Below are positions 11,452 through 46,777 of a stretch of DNA of 64,000 nt, piece by piece. Source of the stretch: Sphyrna mokarran (lineage: Eukaryota); assembly GCA_024679065.1 (NCBI GenBank), contig JAGIQG010000016.1, positions 44,516,001-44,580,000 on the forward strand, read 5' to 3'. Position 1 is the stretch's first letter. Each line of letters opens with the position of its first letter. The notes beneath the pieces were generated by a model. That model was not told the origin of the DNA, ran no database searches, and worked only from the letters and a program-made list of their open reading frames with translations. Position numbers and translations under genes: made by a program.

Positions 11452-12379
11452 AGTTTATTATATACATATATGAAAATGATTTGGAAATAAACATAGCTGG
11501 TCTGATTAGCAAGTTTACGGATGATAGTAAGATTTCTGGAGTTGCGGACAGTGATGAAGATTGTCAGAGAATACAATCTCTGACAATCAGGATATAGATA
11601 GGGTGGAAATTGGGCGGAGGAATGACAGATGGAATTTAATCCAGACAAATGCGAAGTGACGCATTTTGTTAGATCCAGTTCAGATGGGAGCTATAAAAAA
11701 ATGGCAGATTCATCAGGAGCAGAGACATACAGAGAGATGTGGGAGCACAGATCCTTAAAAGTGACAGCACATGTGGAAAAGGTGATGAAGTAAACATATT
11801 GCATGCTTGCCTTCCTGGGCTAATGCATTGAGTAAATTATATTATAGCTATATAAAATCCTGGTTAGGCTATATTTGGAATGTGTCCAATTCTGGTCACC
11901 ACCCTACCAGAAAGATGGAGAGGCTTTGGAGGGAGTACAGAAAAGATTTACTAGGATGTTGCCCAGTATGGAGGGGATTAGCTATGAGGAGAGATTGAAT
12001 AAACTGGAATTGCTGTCCCTGCAAAGACAATGAAGGCTGACCTAATAGAAGTTTATAAAATGATGAGAGGCATAGATAAGTTGAACAGTTAGAAGCTTTC
12101 TTCCAGGGCAGAAATGACAATTACAAGGCGGCACAAGTTCAAGATAAGGGGGGAGAGGTTGATGCGTAGAGGAAATTTTTTACACAAAGAGTGATGGGGG
12201 CCTGGAACACACTACCAAGTGAGGTGGTTGAGACAGACACAATTTAAGACTTATCTGGATAGACACGTGAACAGGAGGGGAATAGAGGCACACAGGCAGT
12301 TGATCTTGTTAGGACAACATGTCGGCGCAGGCTTGGTGGGCTTAAGGAACTATTTCTGTGCTGTACTGTTCTTTGTTTC
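11452..12379 (+). mobile_element. 5'-truncated CR1 LINE fragment (different subfamily, short 3' UTR)
   Basis: NDLE...LISKFTDDSKI, WQMEFNPDKCEV.HF and a degenerate LE.CVQFWSP, with tail ...tgtgctgtactgttctttg. Confidence 0.9.
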
Positions 12380-33820: not shown

Positions 33821-34090
33821 CCGGTTATATCCTTCAGTCACATTGGCCCTGAGACTTACTCAGGAGTAGGAAGAGATTGGTGGGGAGGGTTTTTTACATG
33901 TCCTGCAAAAATTAATCATAAGACATCTCGTTTTCAATTGATTTCCTGACATTGATAGGCTGACTGCCTGTCATGGGGTGCGGCCTAGAAATTACAAAAG
34001 AAATGGGATTGAATATCATGATAGCTGAGTTTGGACATTGCGGACAAGAGAAGCTTGGGGAATGGGAGTGGCTTGAGTTGGGGTTGACTG

Positions 34091-37000
34091 ATGCCTCACC
34101 TGTGTACAGTGTCATATGTGGGAGTTCATGGAGGCAAGACGTCTCCTGAAAGTCCACATATGCGTCAAGTGTTTGGAGCTGCAGCATCTGAGGGCTCGGG
34201 TCAAGCAACTAGAGCGGCGATTGGAGGTGCATTTTCAGTCAGGGAGAACGATGGAATAATGGAAGGGAGGCACAGTAAGGTGGTGGACCCAGAGCCTAAG
34301 GTTGGGGAACCTGACCCTTACAGGTGGATTACTGTAAGGAAGGGGAAAAAGGAGAGGGGAGACAGTCCAAAGACTTCCCCAGTGGCAGTGCCCCAAAATA
34401 TCGAGGGCAGAGGAGTAGAAAAGATAAGGCAGGAAGACCAGAGTACCTCAGAGGGGAGAAAGGGGGCTAGAAGGGAGATAGTGGTGGGGGATGGGAGAGT
34501 TAAAGGAATAGATAGGCTCTTCTATGGTCAAAGGCAGTACTCTAGGATGGTAGTTTGCCTCCCTGGAGCAGGGGTGCAAGATGAGTCAGACAAGGTAGAG
34601 GGCATTTTGAAGGGTGAGGGGACTCAGGCAGATGTGATTATTCACATAGGAGAGAAGGATGTAGGAAGGAAGAGCAGGGAGAATATACAAAGGCAGTTCA
34701 GGGAATTGGGAGTAGGCTGAAGAGCAGGGCCTCCAGGCTGGCGATCTCAGGGCTGCTACCAGGGCCAAGTAACAGTGGGGCCAGGAGAAATGAGATCCTA
34801 CAGTTGAATGCGTGGCTGAAGGATTGGTGTAAGGCAGAGGGTTTCATATTTGTGGATAACTGGGAAGTATTTGTGAAAGAAGGGCACCTGTATAGAAGGG
34901 ATGGGGACCACTTAAATGGGAAGGACATGAATATCTTAGCTGAGAGGTTAGCTGGAGTGTTTCAGCAGGGTTTAAACTAATATGGAGGGGGGAGGGGCTG
35001 AGACTGATAGCTCGATAAGGAGCGAGATGGGAGGTAGAATAAACTTGGATGAGAAGAAATACATCAGGGAGAAGGAGGTTCTGAATGGGCTTGGAGGTCT
35101 GGAGTGTGTCTGTTTCAATGTGAGGAGCCTAACAGGAAAAATGGATGAACTTAGGGCCTTAATGTTTGCAAGGAACTTGGATGTGCTTACAGTGATGGAG
35201 ACGTGGTTAAAGGAAGGGAGCAGTGGCAGCTGAATATTCCTGGGTATAAGTGTTTCAGGCGTGACAGAGGAGGGTCCAGAAGAGGTGGGGGAGTGGCGTT
35301 GTTAGTTAAGGAGAGCATCACGGCGGTGCAGAGGGAGGACAATACAGAGGAGTTAGGAGTGGAGTCGCTGTGGGTGGAGTTGAGGAATAGAAAGGGGGTG
35401 ATTACTATGCTAGGGGTATATTATAGGCCAACCAACAACCCGCGGGTAGTTGAAGAAGGCATATGTAAAGACATTTGGATAGGTGCAGAAAGAACAGAGT
35501 CGTTATAGTGGGAGATTTTAATCTCCCTAGGGTGGATTGGAAAGTACCTAGAGCTGGGGGTTTGGATGGGGAGGAATTTGTAAAATGTGTACTGGAAGGA
35601 TCGTTGGAGCAGTATGTGGCTAGCCCGACTAGAGAAGGGGCTATATTGGATTTAGTTCTAAGTAATGAGCCAGGGCAGGTGGTTGATGTTGTAGTAGGGG
35701 AACATGTGGCTAACAGTGACCACAATTCTGTCTACTTTAGGATACAGATAGAAAAGGATGCTTGTTGCCCTAGGGGCAGGGTGCTGAATTGGGGGAAGGC
35801 TAACTACAGTCGGATTAGGCAGGAACTTATGGAAACTGATTGGGAGCGGTTGTTCGAGGGTAAGTCCACGCTAGGCATGTGGGAATCTTTCAAGGGAATA
35901 CTGAAAATGTTGCAAGAAAGATATGTGCCGGCTCAGAGGAAAGATGGCAAAGGTAGGATTAGAGAGCCATGGATTACTAGGGATATTGAGGACTTGGTTA
36001 GAAAGAAAAGAGAGGTGTATGTTAGGTCAAAGCAGCTGGGAACGGAGACAGCATTGGAGGAATATAGAGAGAGTAGGAGGGAGCTCAAACGGGGAGTTAG
36101 GAGGGCAAAAAGGAGGCATAAAATGGTTTTAGTGGATAGGATTAAGGAAAATCCAAAGGCTTTTTACTCCGATTTTAGGAATAAAAGGGTGGTTAGAGGA
36201 AAAATCAGACCACTTAGGGACAGAGGAGGGGAACTGTGCTTAGAGTCCGAGGGAATGGGAGAGATCCTGAATGAATACTTTGCGTCAGTATTCATGAAGG
36301 AGAGGGGCTTGTTGACTGGTCCTGTCTTTGAGGGAACTGTGGACCAGTTGAAGGAAATATCCATATCGAGGGAGGAAGTGTCAGAGCTTCTAGGTAGCAT
36401 TAAAACTGATAAATCTCCGGGGCCTGATGGCATTTATCCCAGGCTGCTTAGGGAGGTGCGAGGTGAAATTGCTGGGCCTCTGACGCAAATCTTTGTCTCT
36501 TCTTTGAACACAGATCAGGTCCCAGAGGACTGAAGAATAGCTAATGTTGTACTGTTGTTTAAAAAGGGTAGTAGGGATAACCCTGGAAATTGTAGGCCAG
36601 TGAGTTTGACGTCAGTGGTAGGGAAGATGTTGGAGGGGATTCTTAGAGATAGGATGTGTAGGCACTTAGAGTGTTGCGATCTGATTAGGGATACACAGCA
36701 TGGCTTTGTTAAAGGGACGTCGTGCCTTACAAATCTGTTAGAACGTTTTGAGGAGGTGACAAAAATGGTTGACGAAGGGCGAGCAGTTGATGTCATCGAT
36801 ATGGATTTCAGGAAAGCATTTGACAAAGTCCCTCATGGGAGGTTAGTTGAAAAGGTCAAGGCTAATGGGATACGAGGACAGGTAGCTAGATGGATAAGTA
36901 ACTGGCTTGGTAATAGGAGACAGAGAGTAATAGTGGAAGGGTGTTTTTCTAGCTGGAGGCCGGTCATTACTGGTGTGCCACAGGGCTCGGTACTGGGACC

Positions 37001-38428
37001 TCTTCTATTTGTAATATATATAAATGACTTGGAAGAGGGAGTAAGTGGAGTGATCAGCAAGTTTGCAAATGATACAAAGATGGCTGGACTTGCGGATAGT
37101 GAGGAGCATTGTCAGGCGATGCAGCAGGACATAGATAGGCTGGTAGCTTGGGCAGATAGATGGCAGTTGGAATTCAATCCTGATAAATGCGAGGTGATGC
37201 ATTTTGGGAAAAAGAATGTAGTGGGGAGGTATATGATAAAGATATGTAGACCTATTAAGAGTATAGAAACGCAGAGGGATCTGGGGGTGCAGGTGCACAA
37301 GTCTCTGAAGGTGGCAGAGCAGCAGAGAAGGTTGTGAAGAAAGCATGTGGTATGCTAGCCTTTATGGGAAGGGGTCTAGAGTACAAGAGCTGGCCTTTAA
37401 TATTGCAGTTGTATAAAACGTTAGTTAGACCTCACTTGGAATACTGCGTCCAGTTCTAGTCGTCCTACTACCGGAAGGACGTGGAGACTCTGGAGAGAGT
37501 GCAGAGGAGGTTTACCAGGATGCTACCTGGTATGGAAGATCTGAGTTACGAGGAGAGTTTAGGCAAATTGGGGCTGTTTTCCTTAGAAAGATGTAGACTT
37601 AGAGGAGATCTAATAGAGTTGTACGAGATTATGAGAGGTATAGGTAGAGTAAACAGGGTTAAGCTTTTTTTCTAGGATGGACTCAAATAGCACGAGGGGT
37701 CACTGGCTTAGAGTGAGGGTTGTAAGGTTTAATTTGGATGCTAGAGGGAGTTTTTTCACACAGAAGGTGATGGTATGAATCGCACTGCCAAGTAAAGTGG
37801 TGGAGGCAGGCACTCTGGAGTTATTTAAGTGATACTTACATGGGCACATGAACAGAATGGGAATGGAGGGATGTAGAAAACTGATTTAAAATAGGGATCA
37901 TGAGCCTTGTGAGTTCCCTGGGAAGTGTGTAAATAGATGATGATATTGATGTATTTGTTTTTATCCTACAGGTGCTTTGGTCCGCCTTGTTGTCTAACAA
38001 GGGTCATATACACGATGGGTTGTGAGAGGGCTGCTCTTGGATTTTTTTTTCAAGAGTATCCTAGTGCTTCACGCTATTAGTGTACGCATGACCTGCACCA
38101 TTTGACGGGCAACACGACAGCTCAGTGACTATCGCTATGCTGTGCAGATACATGGATTTGGACCTGTGTCTGTGGGAGTTTGCACATTCTCCCTGTGCTT
38201 GTGTGGGTTTTCTCCGGGTGCTCTGGTTTCCTCCCACATCCCAAAGATGTGCTCTTAGGCTGATTGGCAGAACAAAATCTCCCTAAAGTGTCTCAAATTT
38301 GGTTTCAATTCATAGATTTATAAACATAGACAGGGATCATGGGTAGAAGTGGGAACATGGGGGTGGTGGCGCGGGCTTGTCGGGCCAAAGGGCCTGTTTC
38401 CCGTGCTGTTTTTGTTCTTTGTTCTTTG
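34091..38428 (+). mobile_element. Near-full-length, inactivated CR1-clade LINE (HER1-like)
   Basis: ORF1 remnant: CVQC...CVKC zinc finger plus leucine zipper (from 34101) and SGNH esterase motifs (VVGDG..., CLPGA, VIIHIGEKD), ending TAA at 34980. ORF2 remnant: APE endonuclease (FNVRSL, ETWL, GGGVALLV, GVYYRP, VGDFN, LDLVL, SDH) and RT (KSPGPDG, RPVSLTS, DFRKAFD, GVPQGSVLGPLLF, KFANDTK), ending ~37889. Several frameshifts and stops. 3' tail (TTGTTCT)n. Possible TTGACTG TSD at 34084-34090 and 38426-38432. Confidence 0.95.
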
Positions 38429-46650: not shown

Positions 46651-46665
46651 GGATATTTTTAACAG

Positions 46666-46777
46666 AGTAAGGTTTTACAACACCAATTTTAATCCAACCA
46701 ATTTATTTGATGGATTAAAATTGGTGTTGTAAAACCTTACTGAGTTTACCCCAGTCCAACGCCGGCATCTCTACATC
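46666..46777. mobile_element. Penelope-like hairpin mini-element with a 13-bp TSD
   Basis: Perfect 31-bp inverted repeat (46666-46696 / 46711-46741) followed by ccccagtccaacgccggcatctctacatc. TSD atatttttaacag at 46653-46665 and 46778-46790. Confidence 0.85.

Follow-up and report, generated by a model that had tools for sequence, protein, structure and literature searches.

A lineage of CR1 LINEs in Sphyrna mokarran carries an insert of ~470 bp between the ORF2 stop codon and the 3' tail, which was gained once and contains the front of a V-SINE, i.e., a tRNA-derived head with damaged promoter boxes followed by the V-domain. On the sequence evidence, this lineage is a real LINE-SINE chimera of single origin with evidence of constraint. 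The conserved parts of the insert would probably serve the LINE RNA as a cis element (probability roughly 0.6), most likely in RNA stability or nuclear export.

Two copies of this lineage, copies A and B, lie in the window, i.e., the whole 64,000-nucleotide stretch of DNA analyzed, together with a third CR1 and a free V-SINE that serve for comparison (Table 1). We presume the free V-SINE to be of HE1 type and to have HER1 as its LINE partner, the comparisons being with sequences of this genome rather than published ones. The ~540-bp 3' UTR that a preliminary description had recognized in both copies is indeed common to them (85% identity over 548 columns), and the third CR1 has, as that description held, a short UTR from which the insert is absent. 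The 210 bp described as unique sequence are present too, but comprise an 82-bp spacer and a conserved block that is predicted to be structured. The flanks of copies A and B are not colinear, their sole match being 64 bp between the 3' flank of A and the 5' flank of B; this, together with the differing flanks of other genomic loci, rules out a local duplication. Frameshifts and stops interrupt both ORFs of copy B. The match of its ORF1 fragment to PF13472 (esterase; E = 1.8e-5) is under the curated cut-off, and its ORF2 remnant matches PF14529 (E = 7.5e-10) and PF00078 (E = 4.7e-31). Other repeats in the window are a near-perfect 42-bp inverted repeat (46661-46746), a 102-bp inverted pair 2.1 kb apart (19045-21402), and a dispersed 54-bp repeat (3748/49590).

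Table 1. Positions of the CR1 copies, their parts, and the comparison elements in the window.
Feature	Position	Strand	Remarks
CR1 LINE copy B, subfamily Y	34090..38428	+	lacks 5' UTR and ORF1 start
ORF1 remnant (copy B)	34090..34980	+	Cys/His motif, leucine-zipper-like start, SGNH/GDSL esterase
ORF2 remnant (copy B)	34976..37889	+	AP endonuclease and reverse transcriptase; PF14529, PF00078
ORF2 stop TAA (copy B)	37887-37889	+	
Variable spacer (copy B)	37890..37971	+	3' end with branch-point-like motif, pyrimidine tract, CAG
3' splice-acceptor-like AG (copy B)	37970-37971	+	motif kept in subfamilies A, C, Y, X, Z
Conserved 134-nt block (copy B)	37972..38106	+	predicted three-way junction; source not found
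tRNA-derived SINE head, remodelled (copy B)	38107..38165	+	A box mutated, B box deleted; predicted hairpin
V-domain (copy B)	38166..38267	+	83-88/101 identical to same-genome free SINE consensus
Variable spacer 3' of V-domain (copy B)	38268..38360	+	not reliably alignable between deep subfamilies
LINE-native CR1 tail (copy B)	38361..38428	+	stem-loop motif and TTGTTCT repeat
CR1 copy A, subfamily Y, 5'-truncated	13842..15322	+	
ORF2 stop (copy A)	14785-14787	+	
Acceptor-like AG (copy A)	14864-14865	+	
Block (copy A)	14866-14993	+	
Head (copy A)	14994-15052	+	
V-domain (copy A)	15053-15154	+	
Third CR1 (comparison)	11452..12379	+	outgroup lineage, short UTR, same tail type, no module
Free HE1-type V-SINE (comparison)	25626..25985	+	A and B boxes, ATTCTATG-type tail

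We searched the 2.77-Gb genome with the unique part of the UTR, which returned 2249 candidates, 40 of which were scored and 30 fetched. In each of the 29 non-self loci among those 30, ORF2 is joined to the UTR, V-domain, and tail, in agreement with the contiguity that the preliminary description had proposed to check; the flanks of these loci differ, and one locus is broken by an insertion. A reverse search from the ORF1 end gave 19/20 loci that continue through the V-domain, the 20th being rearranged with its fetched segment clipped. Stretches totalling 1.2 Mb, picked irrespective of their content, contained 19 head remnants, from which we extrapolate ~44,000 module copies (Poisson range ~26,000-69,000). 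Full-length module elements measure ~4.7 kb and contain both ORFs: the ORF1 consensus frame has 322 codons, and the ORF2 consensus frame has 998 codons, stop to stop. The CR1 hallmark of 5'-truncated copies with a stem-loop and a short tandem repeat at the 3' end was also seen. Subfamilies Z and X are very young, with mean identities to their own consensus of 1.000 and 0.996, respectively, among the best matches. With ORF1 and ORF2 both present in the lineage, and with an open ORF2 of 961 codons in one young Z copy, the suggestion that an autonomous lineage retrotransposes the chimera as one unit stands.

Some copies show additional arrangements. Full-length Y elements have a common start ~330 bp before ORF1 and an internal TATA-like motif; copies L072, L073, L082, and L123 have an extra partial unit upstream that ends ~30 bp past a TATA-like motif and resembles a tandem-monomer promoter. 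ORF1 of the full-length Z copy L311 contains a nested ~660-bp piece from a different young CR1 family. In the module copy at G000:C1:30029300-30030500, two pieces of the same family as this copy, one from the 3' end in inverted orientation and one from ORF1, split the V-domain.

A tree of ORF2 ends was built from in-genome elements only, with midpoint rooting and clade support taken from branch values. Its input was 151 CR1 ORF2 ends, drawn from a content-blind sample and the window, of which those with 330 or more aligned bases (94) entered the tree. The module was carried by 18 of the 151, one of which was left out for its length, leaving 17 rows in the tree. These 17 rows make up one side of a single branch (support 100/95); outside it lie a module-free sister (100/100) and, among short-UTR branches (99/96), the third CR1 of the window. 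The remaining ORF2 ends, among those listed, have short UTRs as judged by eye. Targeted searches yielded subfamilies Z, A, X, and C and the sister S: the head and V-domain were present at 20/20 loci of Z and 19/20 of A, and at 0/20 of S. Since the module CR1s form one clade nested among short-UTR CR1s, the SINE piece was gained once by the LINE; the nesting and the tRNA head remnant bear out the direction, from SINE to LINE, that had been proposed from the window. We hold this architecture and direction with high confidence. An imperfect repeat of a ~7-base motif of the sister's UTR occurs on both sides of the insert, and would be a weak fit to target duplication or microhomology.

The origin and the end of the module each allow a competing account. 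LINE origins have been proposed for SINE bodies (PMC5786205), and the V-domain could accordingly have been born in a LINE UTR and passed later to SINEs; this is scarcely credible given that the module clade is nested among module-free CR1s, that the module contains a tRNA head remnant, and that V-SINEs are also listed from zebrafish, lungfish, and frog (PMC3747384). The preliminary description had further supposed that the LINE swapped its end for a SINE tail, which would now be used in RT recognition. A similar stem-loop core in all tails compared, and a patchy similarity of the spacer after the V-domain to the 3' half of the SINE, would suit such a swap. However, the module tail is identical to that of the module-free sister CR1 at 52/61 (A) and 46/61 (Y) positions, versus 35/62 (A) and 36/62 (Y) for the HE1-type SINE tail; the TTGTTCT repeat also terminates the sister LINE; and the module-type tail was absent from all 66 free SINEs with a readable tail (of 141 heads). 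The swap is thus contradicted on the tail comparison and extremely improbable. The tail is the LINE's own, so the insert sits between the ORF2 stop and the native tail. Nor do the module CR1s have the 3' tail in common with HE1 that marks HER1, the 35-36/62 identity being to the HE1-type tail of the same genome rather than to a published HER1 sequence. In some copies, a run of 6-10 A bases replaces the TTGTTCT end (11/19 Z and 2/14 X; 0/13 A and 0/16 S); poly-A tails are described as unique to Zenon among CR1-group elements in PMC13343379.

The head remnant is homologous to the head of the free SINE, its alignment score being reached in 0/2000 shuffles for A, C, and Y and in 1/2000 for Z. In the basal subfamily A, its alignment to the free SINE head is full-length, with 3 gap positions and the B-box region included; in C, Y, X, and Z, ~19 bases are missing at the B-box region compared to the free SINE. 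The A box is mutated in the embedded head and the B box is degenerate (A) or deleted (C, Y, X, Z), such that the head lacks the boxes of a working Pol III promoter, and the states of the B box indicate that the promoter was likely lost stepwise. None of 19 sampled head remnants starts at the head, as an independent unit would: 18 have the block upstream, and the remaining one begins just inside the block. Calling this tRNA-like head decayed was misleading, as it has SINE homology and damaged boxes but has been conserved since the promoter boxes were lost.

The V-domain reported in the UTR is confirmed by its match to the free SINE consensus (Table 1), and it agrees, by eye, with published V-domains of Racla, Ac1, and MER6 among the supplement sequences compared. 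Among 60 free SINEs, we found none that lies nearer to the module V-domain than to the free SINE consensus, a result that speaks against continuing conversion from today's SINE family. By eye, the module V-domain has two states in common with mammalian MER6 and unlike the free SINE consensus, and differs from MER6 by ~6 substitutions and 1 gap over 87 bases. Because of these common states, the donor may have been an older V-SINE type than today's consensus.

Conservation was assessed in the five deepest subfamily pairs (A-Y, A-X, A-Z, Y-X, and Y-Z) with fourfold sites as the reference. Fourfold sites, which are possibly near saturation or partly constrained, were 60-68% identical in these pairs, whose consensus sequences are related and hence non-independent. 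Identities were markedly higher in the head (85-93%; Fisher p 1e-4 to 6e-3 against fourfold sites), the V-domain (90-94%; p 2e-7 to 6e-5), and the tail (90-96%). The flanking spacers showed ~47-68% identity and large gaps. Second codon positions were 87-92% identical in the same pairs, the V-domain changing about as slowly. Block identity was 72-88%, and the lowest value, 72% for Y-Z, was not above that of fourfold sites (p = 0.38). As the V-domain outlasted the promoter and changes slowly, in a lineage whose young copies are near-identical, the constraint appears to be independent of Pol III transcription.

The block is predicted to form the same three-way junction in all five subfamily consensus sequences, with a 6-bp closing stem, a short hairpin, and a long irregular hairpin. 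For the sense strand, fold z-scores lie between -3.5 and -4.5 in four subfamilies (C, Y, X, and Z) and at -1.8 in A; for the antisense strand of X and Z, they are near 0. In 7/7 directed comparisons, the fold fared better than under randomly placed substitutions by all three measures, i.e., base pairs retained, energy, and structure distance (p 0.003-0.027). Two-sided changes occur at 3/46 pairs of the fold, one of them doubtful, and the short hairpin is lost or altered in two Z-related copies. We found no block copy outside the module in the 2.0 Mb examined (0.07% of the genome). Covariance models of Rfam 15 gave no match at E<=5 in copy B and 3 chance matches, none inside the UTR, in two young copies; no known RNA family or tRNA gene was matched in the insert. 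Likenesses to an HDV-like ribozyme, Y RNA, and snoRNA were rejected given misfitting pairings and the blank Rfam result. A coding role was likewise rejected, as 2- and 3-base gaps separate the subfamilies and the frames close; for a 42-aa frame in the insert, the search found no longer protein, which is weak evidence.

Directly before the block, a pyrimidine tract and CAG/G are kept in subfamilies A, C, Y, X, and Z and in a sixth variant. The spacer before the block has shrunk from 166 to 21 nt in Z and been replaced in X, and the tract and CAG/G remain. At the level of motifs, the site has the features of a 3' splice site, i.e., a branch-point-like motif, a pyrimidine tract, and a YAG. By an ad hoc score devised after the site had been seen, it came out on top of all YAG sites in Y (208) and in Z (202). 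An AG/GT "ratchet" reading of the junction was discarded, since subfamily X has AG/GC and position +5 is weak.

At the 5' end, Z copy L311 has a donor-like site, a branch-point-like motif, and a pyrimidine tract just before the ORF1 start, possibly marking a small 5' UTR intron in Z. The ray CR1 consensus starts in the supplement of PMC13343379 show a similar 5' UTR arrangement by eye.

Contigs of runs X2, X3, and X22, from three further organisms, cover the block and head region, with the extra TT of the basal subfamily present in X2 and X22. This is a weak hint that the module may predate the species splits.

In the scenario that we favor, a fragment of host sequence or of a host transcript (intron end, exon, SINE copy) would have entered the short UTR of one CR1 in a single event, through template switching or nested insertion. 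The Pol III boxes would then have been lost in two steps while the element went on copying via its own tail, with RT recognition still on that native tail. LINE-level selection would now retain four parts: the acceptor-like site, the block with its fold, the hairpin of the head, and the V-domain. Long stem-loops, like factors that bind pyrimidine tracts or 3' splice sites, can promote the export of RNAs or protect those whose 3' UTRs are long. We consider it probable that selection on the module acts for the LINE; RNA stability or nuclear export as its specific job is a tentative assignment. The module is not required for success: it was present at 18/151 of the ORF2 ends sampled, and a larger young family does without it, which argues against a large benefit.

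The insert could instead be a passenger that is of no use to the LINE, entered once, and seems conserved only because co-active elements undergo conversion or template switching. Consistent with this, module-free CR1 families are equally young and more numerous, the Y-Z block identity does not exceed that of neutral sites, and the V-domain states common with MER6 (by eye) would allow for an older SINE type as donor. Such a passenger is nevertheless unlikely: the head and V-domain stay stable between spacers that turn over, a free counterpart of the remodelled head is missing from the sample of 19, none of the 60 free SINEs favors the module V-domain over its own consensus, and the block fold was retained beyond simulation. 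The V-domain by itself gives no fold signal (z 0 to -1.5), and may therefore act on DNA; together with the head remnant, it could serve as an enhancer or antisense promoter at the 3' end of the element, in line with the exaptation of conserved SINE bodies as regulatory DNA reported in PMC5786205. Since the fold of the adjoining block is sense-specific in X and Z and the block lies directly behind a strand-specific acceptor-like site, we regard a DNA-level role as highly unlikely.

Real splicing would be the key function if an upstream donor, whether in the 5' UTR, at the ORF1 end, or in a host exon, were joined to the module; the product would be a subgenomic or chimeric RNA whose last exon comprises the block, V-domain, and tail. 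The first rank of the acceptor-like site within the entire element in both Y and Z, its survival of the deletion that left a 21-nt spacer, and a strong donor-like site just before ORF1 in Z would accord with this. Yet spliced retrocopies were found neither among 14 odd junctions in Z (versus 3089 native ones) nor among the 36 inspected of 208 odd junctions in Y. In the Y consensus, the donor-like site of the 5' UTR is missing, and the module-free sister also has strong internal donor-like sites. Splicing as the key function thus seems quite unlikely, and a cis element of the LINE RNA remains our preferred reading of the conserved parts. Contigs of four runs from four organisms cover the region as far as the head remnant, and joints into the acceptor were absent from 15 of 100 joints listed; as these contigs are short and only guessed to be RNA, they speak neither for nor against splicing.

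The HE1 V-SINE/HER1 LINE pair of sharks and rays (listed in PMC3747384) is the nearest known system, with a tRNA-derived head followed by a V-domain, a CR1-type partner with a stem-loop tail, and the same genome context. There, the SINE borrows the LINE tail, whereas here a LINE UTR holds the SINE head and V-domain; compared to HE1, the embedded piece has damaged Pol III boxes and no SINE tail. In MER6/MER6A, a MITE that captured a V-SINE (PMC6887750), a V-domain without its head was picked up and propagated by a transposon of another class. That element is DNA-based and non-autonomous, in contrast to the autonomous retrotransposon with the V-domain within its transcript seen here, and the conservation of module CR1s, unlike that of MER6, is measurable against their own coding sites. 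Possible SINE-to-LINE transfers also include Ingi-3_AC, a possible Ceph-SINE recombinant in the 5' UTR, and RTE-1_DAn with its tRNA-like sequence (Kojima, 2018; PMC5786205); in the sections of that paper compared, these are short 5' UTR or tRNA-like matches presented without a tree or conservation test. The same sections report that LINE comparisons gave nothing similar to conserved SINE bodies. Canonical vertebrate CR1s (PMC13343379) resemble the module CR1s in their esterase-type ORF1, APE and RT ORF2, and microsatellite tail, but their UTR is <100 bp rather than ~540 bp. The text of PMC13343379, as distinct from the consensus 3' ends in its supplement, has no mention of a V-domain UTR in the parts compared. 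Our comparison also took in the supplement of PMC5804259, and no description of a V-domain-bearing LINE UTR was found in the narrow literature searched, which lay outside Repbase and Dfam. What would be new here is the SINE front inside the UTR of an autonomous LINE; V-domain capture by another transposon is already known from MER6.

Annotation would wrongly split each of the ~44,000 estimated copies into a LINE and an independent SINE, and the acceptor-like site in every module copy could exonise in host genes. Three models have been set out for the conserved domains of SINEs (PMC5499810), and here the V-domain lies in a protein-coding retrotransposon, where it has outlasted its promoter and lends itself to a simple deletion test in a LINE reporter. 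It is possible, if doubtful, that an autonomous LINE has domesticated the V-domain of its parasite, along with an orphan splice acceptor and a three-way-junction RNA not described before, as a cis module that raises the fitness of the carrier RNA. If true, this would be the first LINE in which a role of the V-domain is assayable in cis, and it would explain the conservation of the V-domain across animal SINEs.
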